Positions 2,885-11,722 of a DNA stretch of 39,849 nucleotides are shown here, piece after piece. The stretch covers positions 1 to 39,849 of the forward strand of contig JAGCLT010000083.1 of the NCBI GenBank assembly GCA_017646825.1, read 5' to 3'. A program made the translations under genes and the position numbers. Positions within the stretch are counted from its first letter, which is position 1. The number at the start of each line of letters is the position of its first letter. Source of the stretch: Clostridia bacterium (lineage in GTDB: Bacteria > Bacillota > Clostridia > Monoglobales > Firm-18). The notes under the pieces were generated by a model. It had not been told where the DNA came from and searched no databases. It saw only the letters and a list, made by a program, of their open reading frames with translations.

Positions 2885-3210
2885 TCATATGTTTGGCGTA
2901 TAAATTGTAAACACTATAAAAGCAATTGCAAATGAAATTACCATTAAATTAAGCAGTTTATCATACGGCTGCATTTTACAGTTCGTTGCGTATTTATTTG
3001 CTACAATAAATGCTGTAATTACGCAAAGATAGAATATGGTAATATCAACTATAGCAATATTATAGCCGAGTATTCCTGTATATGTGTAGAAAATAACAGG
3101 CACTAGTAATGTGCCCATAATAGTCCCAAACGCCATTGCTGAATTTAAGCAAGGGCGTTTTTTACGCCAAAAAAAGAGTACAAAAGCATGGGAAAGAAAA
3201 ATATTTTCAT
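2885..3210 (-). pseudogene. remnant of a small polytopic membrane protein (frameshifted and N-terminally truncated)
   Basis: The 83-aa hydrophobic ORF at 2885..3136 has no SD. Just upstream, in another frame, is a 21-codon hydrophobic ORF (MKIFFFPMLLYSFFGVKNALA*). Together they look like pieces of one membrane protein. The family assignment (DUF6512-like) is from memory only. Confidence 0.4.
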
Positions 3211-3266
3211 AACATCACCTATATCAGTTTATTCGTCAATATGTAAAATAATTCGACTTTTTAATT

Positions 3267-4523
3267 ATGGACAATCAAACTTCCTTATGTTATACTGTAA
3301 ATATAGGGGTGATTACCATTAAAACACTAATTGAATTGTTTGATGAAAGCCAGATCGAAAACATAGTTGGACTTTTAAGTTTTGCGCCTGAAAAAGTAAT
3401 TTATGTAGGTTTTGAAGATGTTATGACTAATGACAGAATCTCTGACCTTGAAAAGTTTTTAAAAGTAAAAGGCATTAATATTTCTTTGGAGTACAATATT
3501 GTTGAACGTGATAATTATAATAACATTTTAAATACTTTAAACAATATTGTTGACAAAAATCATGGCTGTGCTCTTGACCTAACAGGGGGAAAAGAACTTG
3601 TTTTAACGGCAATGGGAGAAGTGGCAGCAAAAAGAGATATCCCTGTTTTCCAGTTTAACATAAGTGATGGAACATTATTAAGAGTTAAAAACTGCGAAAA
3701 TATAGGTGAACCGAAAAAGGTATCTATGAGCATAAATGAAAATATTATACTAAATGGCGGAGCAATTTCATACGGTGACGAAGGTGACTGCGAATGGGTA
3801 TTAACAGATGACTTTAAATCTGATATAGAAACCATGTGGGAAATAAGTAGAAAGAACTGTGCAAAGTGGAACAAACAATGCTCCACATTTGAAGATTTGG
3901 AAAAGTTTGGGGAAATTTCTGATGGTACTTACGTAAAAGCGAATTTGAATTGCATCAAGAAGCCATATTTTAATTATGTAATTATTGACAAACTAATTAA
4001 AAACGGACTTATATACAATTATAAAAACAACGGTCACGAGGTAAGTTTTTGTTGCAAAAACAAGCAGGTAAAAAGATGCTTGTTTAAAGCGGGAAACATA
4101 CTGGAATTATATGCATATATGTATTTAAAAGAAATAGAGGCAAAAGACCCAACCTTTTATGATGATATAGACGTGGGGGTATTTGTGGACTGGGACGGAG
4201 TTTTCCAAAGCCCTGACAGCGAGAAAAAAGACACCAAAAATGAAATCGACATATTTTTAATGCGGGATATAGTGCCTGTTTTTGTGTCTTGCAAAAACGG
4301 CGGCGTAAAAAAAGAAGCATTGTATGAGCTTAATACAGTGGCGGATAAATTTGGCGGTGAGTACGCAAAAAAATACCTGCTTTGCACATACATAAATAAC
4401 AATGCGGAAAGCAGAGAATTTATCCTGCAACGTGCGGCAGATATGAATATAGAAATTATCTGTGACGTTCACAAACTTTACAAAGAGACATTTTCGGATA
4501 TGTTAAAAACAAGAGTTATATAA
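3267..4523 (+). CDS. CARF-domain plus PD-(D/E)xK-fold protein (Card1/Can2-like, DUF1887-type architecture)
   Basis: N-terminus: IKTLIELFDESQIEN and ALDLTGGKELVLTAMG (a CARF-type DxTGGxK loop, nt ~3576-3600). Middle: a wHTH-like segment and the GNILELYAY helix. C-terminus: NEIDIFLMRDIVPVFVSCKNG (D at 4248-4250, S-C-K at 4287-4295). The start is uncertain. ATG 3267 has no SD and sits inside the predicted -35, and an SD-like GGGGTGA at 3306-3312 suggests a downstream non-ATG start (GTG 3309 or ATT 3318). Confidence 0.7.
   Translation: MDNQTSLCYTVNIGVITIKTLIELFDESQIENIVGLLSFAPEKVIYVGFEDVMTNDRISDLEKFLKVKGINISLEYNIVERDNYNNILNTLNNIVDKNHGCALDLTGGKELVLTAMGEVAAKRDIPVFQFNISDGTLLRVKNCENIGEPKKVSMSINENIILNGGAISYGDEGDCEWVLTDDFKSDIETMWEISRKNCAKWNKQCSTFEDLEKFGEISDGTYVKANLNCIKKPYFNYVIIDKLIKNGLIYNYKNNGHEVSFCCKNKQVKRCLFKAGNILELYAYMYLKEIEAKDPTFYDDIDVGVFVDWDGVFQSPDSEKKDTKNEIDIFLMRDIVPVFVSCKNGGVKKEALYELNTVADKFGGEYAKKYLLCTYINNNAESREFILQRAADMNIEIICDVHKLYKETFSDMLKTRVI
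3268..3296 (+). promoter_or_regulatory. sigma-A-type promoter for the CARF/RyR operon
   Basis: -35 TGGACA (3268-3273), 17-nt spacer, extended -10 TGtTATACT (3288-3296). Confidence 0.4.
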
Positions 4524-4535
4524 AGGGTGGTTAAT

Positions 4536-6575
4536 ATGGATTTTTTCACAAAAACAAATATATGCTTAATACTGTCTTTGCTTTTTTCGGTGGCATTTTT
4601 AGTTGTTGTTGTCTTTCCCGGACTTACAAAAAGATTTTCAAAATTAGGCAAATTTGGTCTTTTGATATTTGATTTAGCCGCTGCAATATGGCTTGTTCTT
4701 CTTATAATTTATCCTTCCGTTATTGACTTTACTGCAGTTATTGGCTGTTTAGTGGAAACAATAAAGATGTTTAAAATTGACACCGATTACTACAGTTTTA
4801 TAGCCGCAGGTGAAATTATAGGCAGGACGTTATTTGTAAAGTCATATCTTTCATTTTTATATCTTGCAGCACCGGTAACGAGCAGTATTGTTATATTTGA
4901 AATTTTAGCAGACATATTGCCCTCTTTCCAGTTGTTTATAAAATCAAAACTTATATGGAAAGAGGTCATTTATATAAGCCGCCTTGATAATGAAATGTTA
5001 TCTCTTGCCAAAAGTGCAATAAATTGCAAAAACATATTTACCAGACCGATTGTTGTTTTTGCGGATAAAGCACAGGCAAGCCAAGAACTTGTAGCATCTG
5101 CAAAAATGTGTGGTGCAATATGTATTAAAAACGACATTTTACACATATCCTTCAGAAGACTGTTCAAGAAAAAAATTATTATTGCCGACGGTGCAGACAA
5201 CTTACATATTTTCACATCAATTATAAACAAGAGAAAAGGATTATACAACACAGAACTTTATATATTCTGTGACGATTCTGTTGCCCTTGACTGTGAAACC
5301 ATAATGAATAAAGTCACAGGTAAAAAGTTGTTAAGAACACGTATAATTACTGTTAATCCAAAAAGAAACTTAATAAGAAACCTGCTTTCCGACGTGCCTT
5401 TATACGATCCTCTGGTATCGGTAAAGGACAAGAAAGAACTAAACATTACAGTTTTCGGTGCAGGAAACATAGGTACAGAAATGTTTCTTTCTTCTTACTG
5501 GTACGGACAGATTTTTGGTTATGATTTATGTCTTAACGTAGTGTCAAGAGAGGAAGAAAGGGAGTTTATAGAAAGAATTGCACATATTAACAGCGAACTC
5601 TGGGACACATGCGTAAGAATAAAACCATTAACAGATGCACCGCAAGGTACATTTGAACAAGACGGAAAAACTTCTCGCTTTAAAGATATAATGAAAATAT
5701 ATAAAGACAAAGAGGAAACGGCAAAGCCTTATTTCAAATTCAGGTATTTAAATACGGATTTCCAGTTGGGCGATTATCAGGGCAAGATTATAAATCCACA
5801 ATGGGAAGACGGATTTAAACTTACAGACACCGATTATTTTGTGGTATCTGCAGGGGGAGATGCTTTTAACTTTAAAATTGCCTCAGACATTAAAAAGGCA
5901 CTTGTGGTAAGCGGAAAACAACAAAACACAGTTATATCATATTTAATTACCGACCCTGATTTGTGCCGTACTTTTAACAAAGATGCCCTTGATAAAAACA
6001 TATATATGAATGCTTTTGGCTCTACAGAGGACACCTTTAATGTGAAAAATATATTTATGAGTGCAACTGTAAAAGACAGTAAAATAATAAAAGACGAGTA
6101 TGAAAAAATAGCGAAGAACATTACGGAAAGCAATTTCGGAAACAAGTTATATGATTACTGGGCAGATATTGCCCGTGCCCTTCACATAAAGTACAAGGTC
6201 TTTTCTGCAGGGTTTATAGATTATTCTGTATTTAACAAAAAAGAGAGCAATAATAAAAATGACATTGAAAGTTATAAAGCGGGATGCGACAAAAACGCTA
6301 TGGCGTGGCTTGAGCACAGACGCTGGTGTGCATTTATGAGAGTATGCGGTTTTAAGGCGCCTTATGACGTAGATAAGTTTTACGAAACACACGGCAGTCA
6401 CAAAAATCTTGATCTTAAATTACACTGCTGTCTAACAGAAACAAACGGCGTGTTTACAGAATTTAATACAGACGGATATGCAAGTGACCGCCTTGACTAT
6501 GTGGGAACTCTTGCAAGCAGAAACTTTAAAGGGTATGATTTGCCTGAAAAGGATTTTCCGGGGGAGGGAAAGTAA
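4536..6575 (+). CDS. multi-pass membrane protein with cytoplasmic Rossmann-like (GxGxxG) domains and a C-terminal RyR-like region; function unknown
   Basis: SD AAGGGTGG lies 5 nt before ATG 4536 (the track start GTG 4527 lies inside the SD). About 4 hydrophobic helices in the first ~135 aa. NITVFGAGNIGTEMF at nt 5457-5474 is followed by an acidic REEE. An earlier degenerate Rossmann-like unit reads VIYISRLDNEMLSLAKS...PIVVFADK. The C-terminus reads AMAWLEHRRWCAFMRVCGFK...HKNLDLKLHCCL (nt ~6147-6446). Confidence 0.75.
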   Translation: MDFFTKTNICLILSLLFSVAFLVVVVFPGLTKRFSKLGKFGLLIFDLAAAIWLVLLIIYPSVIDFTAVIGCLVETIKMFKIDTDYYSFIAAGEIIGRTLFVKSYLSFLYLAAPVTSSIVIFEILADILPSFQLFIKSKLIWKEVIYISRLDNEMLSLAKSAINCKNIFTRPIVVFADKAQASQELVASAKMCGAICIKNDILHISFRRLFKKKIIIADGADNLHIFTSIINKRKGLYNTELYIFCDDSVALDCETIMNKVTGKKLLRTRIITVNPKRNLIRNLLSDVPLYDPLVSVKDKKELNITVFGAGNIGTEMFLSSYWYGQIFGYDLCLNVVSREEEREFIERIAHINSELWDTCVRIKPLTDAPQGTFEQDGKTSRFKDIMKIYKDKEETAKPYFKFRYLNTDFQLGDYQGKIINPQWEDGFKLTDTDYFVVSAGGDAFNFKIASDIKKALVVSGKQQNTVISYLITDPDLCRTFNKDALDKNIYMNAFGSTEDTFNVKNIFMSATVKDSKIIKDEYEKIAKNITESNFGNKLYDYWADIARALHIKYKVFSAGFIDYSVFNKKESNNKNDIESYKAGCDKNAMAWLEHRRWCAFMRVCGFKAPYDVDKFYETHGSHKNLDLKLHCCLTETNGVFTEFNTDGYASDRLDYVGTLASRNFKGYDLPEKDFPGEGK

Positions 6576-6853
6576 TGTATAAGCCACAACCTATTGATAC
6601 AAAAGATGTTGTTTTAAGTGACGATATAATGGAACTTGCAGAAGTTCTTTCCAAAAACACTCACGAAGTATGGGCAACAGGAAGAATTGCAGATGGCTGG
6701 AAGTACGGGGAAAAGCGTAACGACCAGTTAAAGGAAACACCTTGCCTTATACCTTATGAACAGTTGCCCGAGTCAGAAAAGAAGTACGACAGAGAAACTG
6801 CACTGAATACCTTAAAATTAATTGTAAAATTGGGTTATACTATAAAAAAATAA
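6575..6853 (+). CDS. stand-alone RyR-domain (ryanodine-receptor repeat type) protein
   Basis: 92 aa. LAEVLSKNTHEVWATGRIADGWKYGEKRNDQLKETPCLIPYEQLPESEKKYDRETALNTLK matches the RyR repeat pattern (HE.W...GW.YG......K..P.L.PY..LPE.EK..DR). The start overlaps the upstream stop (TAATG). Strong SD GGGGAGGG. Confidence 0.8.
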   Translation: MYKPQPIDTKDVVLSDDIMELAEVLSKNTHEVWATGRIADGWKYGEKRNDQLKETPCLIPYEQLPESEKKYDRETALNTLKLIVKLGYTIKK

Positions 6854-6879
6854 ACGGAAGAAATTCCGTTTATTTTTTT
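6852..6879. terminator. bidirectional hairpin terminator shared by the CARF/RyR operon and convergent recG
   Basis: AAACGGAA-GAAA-TTCCGTTT followed by ATTTTTTT, with an A-run on the other side. Confidence 0.8.
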
Positions 6880-8911
6880 ATAGAGTTAAATTGCCTTTGT
6901 ACATTTTAATAACGTCTTGTCTGATAATCTTGTTTTCGGGTTTTGACAGGTTACTGTCAGCATTTAAAATATCCGTTACTGCATCTCCTGCAATTTTGAC
7001 AAGGTCCAAATCTTCGTACAGATTAGCAATATTAAGAGGAGGAAGACCGTGTTGGCTTGTGCCGAAAAATTCCCCTGGTCCACGAAGTTTCAAATCCTGT
7101 TCTGCAATTACAAAGCCGTCATTTGTATCTGTCATTACTTTCATTCTGTTTTGTGCCACTTCACCGCCGTCACAAAACATAATGCAGTATGACTGCCACT
7201 CGCCTCGTCCGACTCTGCCCCTTAACTGATGCAGTTGGGATAGTCCGAAACGCTCTGCGTTTTCAATTACCATTACCGATGCGTTAGGCACGTTTACACC
7301 CACTTCTACAACGGTGGTGCTTACCAGTACATTTGTTTCTCCTGACACAAAGCGGGACATTATTTCGTCTTTTTCTGCGGCTTTTAGTTTGCCGTGAATA
7401 ATATCAACTTTGTAGTCTGAAAAAACTGTGTTTTGCAAAGTTTTTGCAAACTCTGTTACCGCTTTTAATTCCGTAGTTTCATTTTCGTTAACCATAGGGC
7501 ACACGATGTAAACCTGACGCCCCTCGTTAATATTTTTTATCATAAAGTTGTTTATACGCTGACGCATATTTTCGTCAACGCTGTATGTTTTGACTTCTTT
7601 TCTGCCGGGAGGCATTTCGTTTATTACCGAAACATCAAGGTCTCCGTAAAGTACAAGTGCAAGTGTCCTTGGTATGGGTGTTGCAGTCATAACAAGAGTA
7701 TGGGGCGTACCGCCTTTTCCTGCAAGGGCACTTCTTTGTTCAACACCGAAGCGATGTTGCTCGTCAGTAACCACCAAAGACAGGTTATTAAATTCCACGT
7801 CCTTTTGTATAAGGGCGTGAGTACCTACAATTACGTTGTAACCGCCGTCTTTTATGCTTTCTAAAGCCTCGCGTTTTTCTTTAGACTTAAGACTTCCTGT
7901 TAAAAGAACAACATTTACGTCAAAGGGTGTAAGGACATCTTTTAAATAAGTGTAATGTTGTTTGGCAAGAATTTCGGTTGGTGCCATCATTGCGCCCTGA
8001 CCGCCATTTTTTGCCGCTATTAAAAGGGCAATGGCAGCAACTACCGTTTTACCGCAACCAACGTCACCCTGAACAAGTCTGTTCATAAGTTTTCCGCTTT
8101 TTGTATCGTTTATAATATCTGTTACAGTATTAAACTGGGCATTTGTTAATTTATATGGCAAAGTTTTTATAAACTCCGAGGCAATTTCTGTGCCGTTTAT
8201 AAAAGCTGTACCCTTTAATTTGTTCTTCGCTTTATTAAGAAGTCTTAACCCCAGTTGAAGATAAAACAGTTCGTCAAAGGCAAGTCTGTTTCTTGCAAAA
8301 AATGCCGACTGTGCATTTTTGGGGAAATGGATATTTGTAATTGCATACCCGATGCCGCAAAGACCGTATTTTTCCCTGATTTCGGGTGGTAGATTTTCAG
8401 GAATTTCAGATACATAAGGAATACACTGTTTTATTGTTTTTACCACCATATTATGGGAAAGATTTTTTGTAAGGGAATATACGGGGACGTTTGCATCTGT
8501 GGTAGTTGCTTTGTCTGACCGTTCCAGCACACGAAGAGCCATTTCTTTTCCGTACAAAGAAACAGATACGTCGCCGTAGGCATTATACCAGGAGTTATAA
8601 TCAAAGTTCTGTGCAAGCCAATCCTGATTAAACCAGGTAATTGTTATTGTATCATTTCCGTCTGTGGCGTACAGTTTATGTACGGTAAGCCTACTTTTTG
8701 TGCGCATAGTTTTAATGGGGGCAAGTGCCGTTATTCTTATACAGCCGATTTGACCGCCGTTAATATCTTTTATAGGTTTCACGGTTCTGTCGGAGTAAAA
8801 ACGGGGATAAAATTTAAGCATATCTCCTATTGTAGATATGCCTAAATGCTGAAACAATTTTAAGTTTTTTTCTCCAATGCCTTTTAATGTTTCAATACTT
8901 TTTTCAATCAT
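6878..8911 (-). CDS. recG: ATP-dependent DNA helicase RecG
   Basis: 677 aa. Wedge/OB N-terminus. Helicase motifs GDVGCGKT (Walker A), VTDEQHRFG (DEQH) and QLRGRVGRG. Confidence 0.95.
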   Translation of the reverse strand: MIEKSIETLKGIGEKNLKLFQHLGISTIGDMLKFYPRFYSDRTVKPIKDINGGQIGCIRITALAPIKTMRTKSRLTVHKLYATDGNDTITITWFNQDWLAQNFDYNSWYNAYGDVSVSLYGKEMALRVLERSDKATTTDANVPVYSLTKNLSHNMVVKTIKQCIPYVSEIPENLPPEIREKYGLCGIGYAITNIHFPKNAQSAFFARNRLAFDELFYLQLGLRLLNKAKNKLKGTAFINGTEIASEFIKTLPYKLTNAQFNTVTDIINDTKSGKLMNRLVQGDVGCGKTVVAAIALLIAAKNGGQGAMMAPTEILAKQHYTYLKDVLTPFDVNVVLLTGSLKSKEKREALESIKDGGYNVIVGTHALIQKDVEFNNLSLVVTDEQHRFGVEQRSALAGKGGTPHTLVMTATPIPRTLALVLYGDLDVSVINEMPPGRKEVKTYSVDENMRQRINNFMIKNINEGRQVYIVCPMVNENETTELKAVTEFAKTLQNTVFSDYKVDIIHGKLKAAEKDEIMSRFVSGETNVLVSTTVVEVGVNVPNASVMVIENAERFGLSQLHQLRGRVGRGEWQSYCIMFCDGGEVAQNRMKVMTDTNDGFVIAEQDLKLRGPGEFFGTSQHGLPPLNIANLYEDLDLVKIAGDAVTDILNADSNLSKPENKIIRQDVIKMYKGNLTL

Positions 8912-11026: not shown

Positions 11027-11365
11027 ATGCTTAGAATAATCGGCTTTTTTGCGGGACTGGCAAACGGTCTTTTAGGTACAGGCGGAGGAATTATACTGGT
11101 AACCGCAACTAAAATTATGGGTGTAAAACCAAAGATTGCCCACGCAACAGCACTTACGGTTATACTGCCTTTGTGTCTGGTTTCGATTGTTATGTATTTT
11201 AAAAATGGACATCTGGAAGTGTTACCTGCAGTACTGGTAGGTATAGGTGGGACTTTAGGTGGTTTTATCGGTGCAAAGTTACTTAAAAAAACACCTGACA
11301 CCTGGCTTAAAATTCTTTTTGGTATTACAACTATAGTTCTTGGAGTAATGATGTTTCGGAGGTAA
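11027..11365 (+). CDS. TSUP (TauE/SafE) family membrane protein, half-size (4 TM), first half
   Basis: 112 aa. GLANGLLGTGGGIILV motif and four hydrophobic spans. Confidence 0.8.
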   Translation: MLRIIGFFAGLANGLLGTGGGIILVTATKIMGVKPKIAHATALTVILPLCLVSIVMYFKNGHLEVLPAVLVGIGGTLGGFIGAKLLKKTPDTWLKILFGITTIVLGVMMFRR

Positions 11366-11368
11366 TAT

Positions 11369-11722
11369 ATGTACGTTGTACTGTTGGTTACGGGGTTATT
11401 GTCAGGAATAATAACGGGAATGGGACTTGGTGGAATAGTGCTTATTCCCGCCCTTACTATGCTTCTTGATTTTCCGCAAAAAGTGGCTCAGGGAATTAAT
11501 CTTGTGTATTTTATACCTACTTCTCTTGTGGCACTTTTTGTTCACAATAAAAATAAAAATCTTGATTTTAAACTTACAAAACATCTTGTAGTCTGGGGCG
11601 TTTTGGGAGCGTTTGCAGGGAGTATGCTGGTTGGAGTTATCCCTGCACAGATTTTAAGAAAAATATTTGCAGTACTGCTTTTGGCAATTGGAATATATCA
11701 GGTTGTTACAGTAAAAAAATAA
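11369..11722 (+). CDS. TSUP (TauE/SafE) family membrane protein, half-size (4 TM), second half
   Basis: 117 aa. GIITGMGLGGIVLIP motif. The start is 3 nt after the upstream stop, with SD GGAGG inside the end of the first ORF. Confidence 0.8.
   Translation: MYVVLLVTGLLSGIITGMGLGGIVLIPALTMLLDFPQKVAQGINLVYFIPTSLVALFVHNKNKNLDFKLTKHLVVWGVLGAFAGSMLVGVIPAQILRKIFAVLLLAIGIYQVVTVKK

Follow-up and report, generated by a model that had tools for sequence, protein, structure and literature searches.

What does a CARF nuclease of the Can2/Card1 type do in an operon without cas genes, and why would its partners be a membrane protein and a stand-alone RyR repeat? The question is raised by a locus on contig JAGCLT010000083.1 of a Clostridia bacterium (assembly GCA_017646825.1), analysed here over its whole stretch of 39,849 nucleotides (the window), in which three genes follow one another on the forward strand: open reading frame (ORF) A (3267..4523), encoding a CARF + PD-(D/E)xK nuclease of the Can2/Card1/VC1899 family, 418 amino acids (aa) long when drawn as the longest ORF; ORF B (4536..6575), encoding a 679-aa membrane protein of an unannotated family; and ORF C (6575..6853), encoding a 92-aa stand-alone RyR repeat (PF02026). 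We conclude that this arrangement is real and non-random, that A and C belong to known families and B to a new one, and that their combination represents a new variant in nucleotide-signalling defence whose mechanism is unproven.

Results

The operon is one form of a recurrent module

From a scan of one genome per species, which gave 146 relatives of B, we retained 80 loci, 79 of them non-redundant and all from gut or rumen Clostridia. Neighbouring ORFs were called, searched with A, B and C, and then clustered; as many contigs end nearby, the locus counts are lower bounds. An RyR gene lies directly 3' of B in 38 of the 79 loci, and this pair is conserved at identities as low as ~28-30%. A CARF nuclease occurs, on the same strand as B, in 24 loci; a soluble protein of ~1160 aa with a double AAA+ region (AAA_2 + FtsH-type) and a peptidase M41 domain is found in 32; and B stands alone in 23. 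Moreover, four proteins (L015, P0157, P0204 and P0260, the latter with two tandem repeats) carry the RyR repeat fused to B, and these natural fusions argue for B and C being a physical unit. The short A-B-C form seen in the window recurs in L007, L011, L020, L037 and L091-93, while a recurrent long operon encodes c5 (298 aa), c9 (90 aa), two YbjN-like proteins, the CARF nuclease, with or without a 596-aa B paralogue, the AAA+/M41 protein, B and RyR. The invariant gene is thus B, the core of the system is B(+C) and A is optional, the compact A-B-C operon being one form of a recurrent module. An earlier reading of this DNA (the original prediction), made from its letters alone, had proposed the co-conservation that these loci display, and had not recognised the combination as a described system; we likewise found no publication combining RyR domains with CARF, nor one describing the AAA+/M41 combination. 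Two other elements of it are not supported: the CARF sensor A, missing from 55 of the 79 loci, is not the core of the system, and there is no sign that RyR domains connect A with B.

The long operon was seen in L015, L017, L022, L033, L035, L049, L052, L066 (2028-11200), L067, L074/75 and L085. Judged by eye, its c5 protein is sigma-70-like, with no Pfam match, and c9, with an H-x3-C-x2-C motif, is anti-sigma-like; the long operon recalls in this respect the protease/anti-sigma/sigma logic of CalpL-CalpT-CalpS in type III systems.

ORF A is a Can2/Card1-type nuclease with conserved catalytic acids

A matched the PADLOC model CARF4--CARF_PDDEXK over its full length (E = 1e-34) and the Pfam family Card1_endonuc, above the cut-off, over residues 271-400 (7e-8). 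With Foldseek, its AlphaFold (AF2) model (predicted local distance difference test, pLDDT, 88.5; predicted template modelling score, pTM, 0.86) had VC1899 (1XMX) as best match (E = 1e-22; template modelling score, TM, 0.70/0.76), together with SthCan2 bound to cyclic tetra-adenylate (cA4; TM 0.64-0.79), Cdn1, Card1, TbrCan2 and Can1. The architecture, an N-terminal CARF Rossmann domain followed by a helical/winged helix-turn-helix insert and a C-terminal PD-(D/E)xK domain, is that of Can2/Card1 (DUF1887), as had been proposed. A search of PDB with the single sequence of A gave no match; the family profile matched Can2 7BDV at 1e-6, residues 6-128 of A aligning to 13-131 of 7BDV.

By profile alignment, the CARF Rossmann domain spans approximately residues 15-150 (3309..3716, + strand) and includes the ligand loop DLTGGKE, whose D104, T106, G107 and G108 are invariant among the relatives aligned. 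Pfam and alignment place the nuclease domain at approximately residues 271-400 (4077..4466, +), with N325-E326-I-D328 and, further on, S341-C342-K343. E326 and D328 align with E276 and D278 of SthCan2, mutation of which abolishes activity (PMC7969007), and are invariant in 66 relatives; so is S341-C342-K343, in both of the nuclease clades described below and in the type III-B-linked member, with the Lys kept. The PD-(D/E)xK core that had been read in VFVSCKNG is therefore right as to the domain and wrong as to the acids: Ser precedes C-K, and the catalytic acids E326/D328 lie in NEID. As judged from these alignments, the nuclease site of A is under selection, with its predicted catalytic E and D kept.

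Nucleases from two deep clades accompany ORF B

In a neighbour-joining tree, 22 of the 25 B-linked nucleases form a separate deep clade, 30-37% identical to the A of the window, and window A nests, with the nucleases of L007 and L011, in the general Clostridia Can2 clade (45-57% identity). Because the B-linked nucleases fall in two deep clades, the tree indicates that B gained a Can2-type partner at least twice independently. The general clade includes P0036 and P0037, the first of which, 54% identical to A, is encoded directly beside a type III-B cluster (Cas6-Cmr2-Cmr3-RAMP-Cmr5-RAMP); it also includes P0044, beside an AAA/ClpP/Tubulin_2 cluster, and P0107, a lone gene amid housekeeping genes.

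The nuclease motifs are the same in both clades, while the CARF pocket is systematically different: position 29 is Q in the window clade and A/S in the B-dedicated clade, position 54 is T against M/L, position 109 K against D/E, position 126 P against Q, and position 129 Q against R/K. Among the general-clade members compared, K109 is kept in 41 of 44 and Q129 in 43 of 44, and all 32 aligned clade members, including the type III-B-adjacent one, have D26, N32, D104, T106, G107 and G108 in common. Since the pocket residues are alike, window A most likely reads the ligand of its type III-B-linked relatives; the B-dedicated clade, by its residues, may read another ligand. The cA4 contacts of SthCan2 (S19, T42, K99 and Y118) align to D26, T54, E110 (with K109 adjacent) and Q129 of A, at ~15% identity and hence in an uncertain register.

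Another non-CRISPR setting for the general Can2 clade is L088 (10001-21227), where the gene for a Can2 protein (52% identity to A) precedes those for an AAA protein (694 aa), ClpP, a 713-aa protein and a Tubulin_2 protein of 1221 aa, without cas genes. In P0091 and P0100 (699 aa), Can2 homologues (~50% identical to A) are fused to a metallo-beta-lactamase domain (PF00753).

ORF C is a complete RyR repeat

As had been anticipated, C is an RyR repeat from end to end: it matched PF02026 over positions 1-91 of 91 (4e-35; 120.3 bits, cut-off 27.4), and in PDB it matched Bacteroides thetaiotaomicron 3NRT (6e-31) and also the repeats of RyR1-3. Across 26 B-linked C proteins, H30, W33, D72 and R73 do not vary. 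Two 2026 preprints describe stand-alone RyR proteins of phages that act on TIR-made cyclic ADP-ribose (cADPR) signals, thereby countering Thoeris: RyDEP cleaves 2'/3'cADPR (dyad H75/D117, with W78 and H100), and RyR Tad is a sponge for glycocyclic ADP-ribose (gcADPR) and cADPR with nanomolar affinity (H129/W132, H154 and D171) (PMC13232231; 10.64898/2026.06.04.730250). Mapped by spacing and motif, H30, W33 and D72 of C stand at the RyDEP/RyR Tad spacings (+3, +42), and at least 90% of the B-linked C proteins have Thr at the His position of K-x-H-P.

The RyR protein of L011 (12182-12466), a locus whose nuclease belongs to the general Can2 clade as window A does, retains this His (KKLHPCL), unlike almost all other B-linked RyR proteins.

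ORF B defines a large membrane protein family

Neither B nor 29 homologues had a match in Pfam, PADLOC, NCBIfam or the PDB sequences, and lowering the Pfam threshold to E values up to 1 gave only noise on 30 members. An exhaustive profile search, in contrast, recovered 2,494 representative clusters (50% identity) at E <= 1e-3, 927 of them at E <= 1e-30, so that B is a member of a large, unnamed and new family. In its AF2 model (pLDDT 83; pTM 0.78) three regions follow one another. The N-terminal membrane region (4536..4946, +), delimited by the hydropathy of B and three homologues, has three transmembrane helices (~8-28, 41-60 and 105-130), with a K/R-rich loop after the first and a conserved F79-x-x-D82-x-x-Y85 (consensus FSMDEDY) between the second and the third. 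The DSSP assignment of the model and the invariant columns then define two Rossmann-like domains (4953..6035, +), the second with G308-x-G310-x-x-G313 and the other with the invariant acidic residues E184 and D200. The C-terminal domain (6147..6572, +) is helical and, from hhalign, possibly RyR-like (W591-LEH594RRW597 ... L-H630-C-C-L): the family motif W-L-E-H-R-R-W ... L-H-P-C-L-V-E aligns with H-E-x-W ... T-T-P-C-L-V-P-Y of the RyR family, the window B having L-H-C-C-L-T-E where its family has L-H-P-C-L-V-E.

This last resemblance had E = 1.6e-3 when the C-terminus of B was aligned with the RyR family and E = 1.3e-4 (probability 54%, 22 columns) with 163 sequences, against 0.0045-0.01 for reversed-sequence controls, which gives the divergent RyR-like end earlier ascribed to B weak support; Pfam (30 members) and Foldseek detected no RyR repeat in B. 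The best Foldseek matches of B were DpaA (Rossmann) and the transmembrane + RCK1 + RCK2 part of Slo1/Slo2.2 (E 3.5e-4 to 2e-2; TM 0.3-0.36), the Slo1/Slo2.2 alignment covering ~700 columns at E values of 2e-3 or weaker. B has no TVGYG-type filter and no Pfam match to TrkA_N or Ion_trans, no CARF or SAVED match in PADLOC or Pfam, and, by Pfam, PADLOC and Foldseek, no similarity to TIR, CD-NTase, Cas10 Palm or mCpol. To call B RyR-like and channel-like is plausible, not established.

The related loci have defence genes as neighbours and no signal generator

In a set of 129 proteins representing the operon mates of B, Pfam detected TIR_2 more often than any other domain (9 proteins), and TIR-type models of PADLOC were matched as well. 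TIR genes occur in ~10 of the 79 loci and adjoin B or RyR in L002, L006, L021, L035, L048, L077 and L086. TIR, NACHT and AAA+ protease genes thus give the module the defence-type company that had been predicted for it; some B loci adjoin a type IV secretion system (T4SS) coupling protein. In L002 (1-22274), B-RyR lies inside a large same-strand island with a B paralogue, AAA+/M41, TIR-NACHT-TPR (1002 aa), NUDIX and HD proteins, a Sel1-like/Zn-peptidase-like protein (by eye), Tubulin_2-TIR, a TerB-like protein and TIR-kinase-FHA.

Cas genes and signal generators were found neither in the window nor within 10 kb of B in the 79 loci. More precisely, the 39.8-kb window holds no cas gene, cyclase, TIR gene, CRISPR array, tRNA or Rfam RNA, and the 25 PADLOC families listed for the operon mates of B include no cas family. 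The type III-B proteins of L087, compared by phmmer with all ORFs of 86 loci, returned only GGDEF-protein matches, in a search of limited sensitivity for divergent Cas10. The original prediction was therefore correct about the window itself; its idea of a self-contained system has no support, because no synthase was found in any locus.

A k-mer screen flagged CRISPR candidates in L018, L020, L024, L055 and L057, the larger two of which were examined by Tandem Repeats Finder (TRF): the repeats of L020 (period 69 nucleotides) and L057 (24 nucleotides) are coding and similar over the whole unit, and were rejected as CRISPR. No CRISPR array was found adjacent to the module, a result that rests on TRF of L020 and L057 and not on the three small flagged loci.

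Scans of 2.9 M viral contigs and 72,556 plasmids (PLSDB) yielded no relative of B or A, and the INPHARED phages gave one weak partial match (23% identity); C-like proteins are present in 160 phage records. Two records, both unverified and from human-faecal 'Bacteriophage sp.', deserve mention: L094 (MT837259.1) encodes at 5992-6285 a full-length C-like RyR protein (55%), without B upstream, and L095 (MT835673.1) has at 4482-6572 a 696-aa ORF with weak similarity (23%) to residues 67-336 of B.

Expression signals and chromosomal setting of the operon

The layout described in the original prediction, three tightly packed same-strand ORFs, was confirmed to the nucleotide. The stop codon of A (TAA, 4521-4523) is followed by a spacer of 12 nucleotides that carries AAGGGTGG and then by the ATG of B at 4536, a start that agrees with the 679-aa recorded protein (P0001); an alternative GTG start at 4527 is less likely. 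The stop of B and the start of C overlap in TAATG (6573-6577), with GGGGGAGGG upstream. By this gap and overlap, A, B and C are translationally coupled in the window.

The promoter-like element and the strong terminator that had been noted were both found. The first is a sigma-70-like candidate, TGGACA-17-TG-TATACT (3268..3296, +; 10/12 matches, extended -10), which falls within ORF A when A is drawn from 3267. Given that position, the disorder of residues 1-14 in the AF2 model and the 404-aa length of an 82%-identical homologue, the true start of A is probably the GTG at 3309, which gives 404 aa. The second is a bidirectional intrinsic terminator (6845..6879, assigned to neither strand), a 15-bp hairpin with flanking A and U runs (-15.1 kcal/mol; z = -5.3; 0/200 shuffles fold equally well), which abuts the stop of the convergent recG (6878-8911, -) and serves both transcription units. 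Housekeeping genes make up the other genes of the window: recG, fakA, Asp23, TauE, PBP2, FtsW, SigH, DprA, aldolase, DAHP synthase, gmk, infC and TtcA.

A tyrosine integrase (429-1457) lies 1.8 kb upstream of the operon. It is what remains of the tRNA/integrase hotspot once suggested here: ARAGORN, Rfam at the gathering threshold and a relaxed Rfam scan revealed no credible tRNA or att-like RNA near it. Nor is the operon part of an accessory stretch bounded by this integrase. A relative with a 79%-identical B has the order of the window (LysM/CAP, DUF6512, A, B, C, recG, fakA, Asp23, TauE), with an HTH (helix-turn-helix) gene upstream in the place of the integrase; this sets the integrase element apart from the operon, which is a stable chromosomal feature of the lineage and not integrase cargo.

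Nucleotide similarity to L091 starts at about position 2130 of the window, in the interval 1457-2260 that lies 3' of the integrase, and L091 has an HTH gene there. The DUF6512 gene directly upstream of A (2885-3215, -) is a pseudogene: it is frameshifted, is interrupted by a stop close to the C-terminus and shows no recognisable trace of its 45 N-terminal residues; at the equivalent place L091 has an intact copy of 159 aa. TauE/SafE is represented by two adjacent half-size ORFs (11027-11365 and 11369-11722; 112 and 117 aa), a split also present in L091 and thus probably a real two-gene arrangement, not an error.

Discussion

How the operon works has to be read from what its domains are, how its genes are linked, how RyR is fused to B and which catalytic and ligand-type residues are conserved, and from the lack of a generator at the locus. 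We tentatively propose, with somewhat less than even confidence, that A-B-C is a nucleotide-signal-responsive, trans-activated dual-effector module without its own generator. A type III CRISPR complex and/or TIR proteins, acting elsewhere in the cell, would sense infection and release adenine-nucleotide messengers. A cyclic oligoadenylate synthesised in trans would probably activate A, whose CARF dimer would bind the kind made by the type III-B systems that accompany its closest relatives; A would then act as a Mn/Mg-dependent nuclease, nicking or degrading DNA and RNA. B with C would use the RyR-type pocket to bind an adenine nucleotide derived from ADP-ribose or related to it, and the Rossmann domains of B, placed in the cytoplasm and one of them with the dinucleotide-binding GxGxxG, may bind NAD or ATP too. 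C would work physically with the C-terminus of B, either by completing an R12-like nucleotide site of two repeats or by buffering the signal to set a threshold, and B would then perturb the membrane, possibly as a gated cation pore. The presumed outcome would be growth arrest or abortive infection, in a scheme in which none of A, B and C makes the signal.

The ligands, the membrane activity and the defence role in this scheme are what we infer, and trans-activation is an assumption, made because neither the window nor the surroundings of B hold a generator. For A, the most economical assumption is a type III system elsewhere that activates it in trans, given that the clade member 54% identical to it lies beside a type III-B system and has the same CARF-pocket residues; to this extent, and for A, the alternative considered in the original prediction, that the operon serves a type III locus elsewhere, has gained ground.

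Several observations weigh against our proposal. The Glu of the canonical (D/E)-x-K is replaced by Ser in A, which by alignment keeps at most one of the four cA4 contacts common to Can1 and SthCan2 and which shares its Asp at the Can2 Ser19 position (D26) with the orphan VC1899, a cA4-insensitive protein (PMC7969007). In C, Thr55 stands in place of the phosphate-binding His found at +25 in RyDEP and RyR Tad. The RyR-like and channel-like features of B have weak scores, and Foldseek against viral structures matched B only to two-Rossmann glycosyltransferases. To this must be added the lack of any generator near B, on which the assumption of trans-activation itself turns, and the 23 loci with B alone, from which it follows that the function of B may be independent of immunity.

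Other explanations have to be weighed. The module could be more elaborate than we propose, with B+C a nucleotide-gated channel that has a two-repeat, R12-like RyR sensor, and with the operon reading both cyclic oligoadenylates (through Can2) and TIR-type ADP-ribose signals (through B/C) so as to back up several sensors, or else with B making a private signal. This we regard as unlikely; if true, B/C would stand on the host side of immunity as the counterpart to the phage RyR sponges, and would foreshadow in prokaryotes the nucleotide/cADPR gating of RyR. Just as unlikely is a simpler explanation, in which A is an ordinary type III ancillary gene displaced from a distant locus, and B/C a housekeeping ion transporter with its nucleotide-sensing subunit, unconnected to A. 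The clade of A does contain a type III-B-adjacent member and lone orphans amid housekeeping genes, B is often alone and resembles RCK-regulated channels, and the flanks of the window are housekeeping, but chance neighbours would hardly be expected to include nucleases from two deep clades, beside B and on its strand in 24 of 79 species-level loci, nor the translational coupling seen in the window, nor TIR, NACHT and AAA+ protease genes as the other partners of B.

That B itself is a hidden generator, one of its Rossmann domains turning NAD+ or ATP into a messenger on a membrane trigger, for the RyR module and any CARF nuclease present to read, seems to us less probable than either of these. 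No resemblance of B to TIR, CD-NTase, Cas10 Palm or mCpol was detected, ~10 loci have a TIR gene separate from B, and the pocket of window A is that of its type III-linked relatives; yet B is the sole invariant gene, no synthase accompanies it in 79 loci, even in operons of nine genes, it combines a GxGxxG domain with another bearing the invariant E184 and D200, and the distinct CARF pocket of the B-dedicated nuclease clade suggests a private ligand. Least probable of all is that the module is a signal quencher or counter-defence, in which C sequesters or hydrolyses cADPR-type signals, the CARF domain of A may soak up cyclic oligoadenylates and B is an anchor or regulator, so that a mobile element is protected or host immunity damped. 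The phage RyR proteins are indeed sponges or glycosidases (PMC13232231; 10.64898/2026.06.04.730250), C-like proteins are found in 160 phage records, C retains the H/D dyad, and some B loci are near a T4SS coupling protein and others near ClpP or a zinc-ribbon protein that is PcfJ-like by eye (no Pfam support). Against it, the viral contigs and plasmids scanned gave no relatives of B or A and the phage records one weak partial match, the window locus is chromosomal and syntenic between relatives, the nuclease site of A is invariant, and a conserved membrane protein of 680-1000 aa would be superfluous for a sponge.

The trans-activated dual-effector module that we favour would matter in several ways. 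It was not until 2026 that RyR proteins were shown to bind or cleave TIR-made cADPR signals, and then solely in counter-defence by phages. The present locus draws attention to an unannotated bacterial family of ~2,500 clusters in which an RyR module is wired to a membrane protein, repeatedly together with CARF nucleases, TIR and an AAA+ protease. If its function is confirmed, it would represent a new sensor-effector class in nucleotide-based immunity, made of effector modules without their own generator that may bridge type III CRISPR and Thoeris, as well as a tractable bacterial model for what the Repeat12 domain of RyR senses.

Its nearest counterparts in the literature are Can2/Card1, VC1899, RyDEP with RyR Tad, and the Thoeris types that have membrane or ion-channel effectors (10.64898/2025.12.03.692087). 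Like the RCK/KTN channels MthK, Slo1 and Slo2.2, B has membrane helices followed by two Rossmann domains; it differs from them in having no TVGYG-type filter and no TrkA_N/Ion_trans match, in its low TM (0.3-0.36) and in its extra C-terminal domain, which is possibly RyR-like. Cam1, Csx23, CorA and the CARF-TM (CARF-transmembrane) protein of Panoptes embody a similar concept, in which a cytoplasmic nucleotide sensor controls a membrane-perturbing domain, beside a nuclease or replacing it. However, their sensors are CARF or SAVED domains and their genes accompany Cas10 or mCpol, whereas B has neither of these domains and no nearby generator. Thoeris systems with membrane or channel effectors (type V, ThsF; type X, a TIR protein with a predicted ion channel) offer another parallel, in that ~10 of the related loci have the layout of TIR plus membrane effector (10.64898/2025.12.03.692087), although the window has no TIR gene and B no Pfam ion-channel domain; in that paper 'ryanodine' appears once, about animal calcium channels, and 'RyR' is absent (10.64898/2025.12.03.692087).

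As with RyDEP, a glycosidase, and RyR Tad, a sponge, C is a small stand-alone PF02026 protein with His, Trp and Asp at the same spacing. In contrast to them, it is encoded on a bacterial chromosome, always directly 3' of B or fused to it, and has Thr for the phosphate-binding His. C is not a phage-encoded anti-Thoeris gene, its locus being chromosomal and syntenic and B being absent from the viral and plasmid collections, and an immune-evasion role like that of the phage RyR proteins is unlikely for it. The 'putative ryanodine receptor' of B. thetaiotaomicron (3NRT, 4N05, 6UAG) aligns along the whole of C and retains the His that C has lost. VC1899 of Vibrio cholerae, the best structural match of A, is likewise a cas-orphan, with Asp aligned to Can2 Ser19 (PMC7969007); VC1899, however, retains E-C-K and has a largely acidic/hydrophobic pocket with no response to cA4, whereas the pocket of A resembles that of its type III-B-linked relatives. 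Finally, A has the same domain order and fold as Can2/Card1 (SthCan2 7BDV, TresuCard1 6WXW, TbrCan2 8Q3Y) over its full length (TM 0.6-0.79), together with their catalytic E/D. It departs from them in having no cas genes nearby, S-C-K for E-C-K and three of the four cA4 contacts unmatched by alignment, and in sharing its operon with a membrane protein and an RyR protein.

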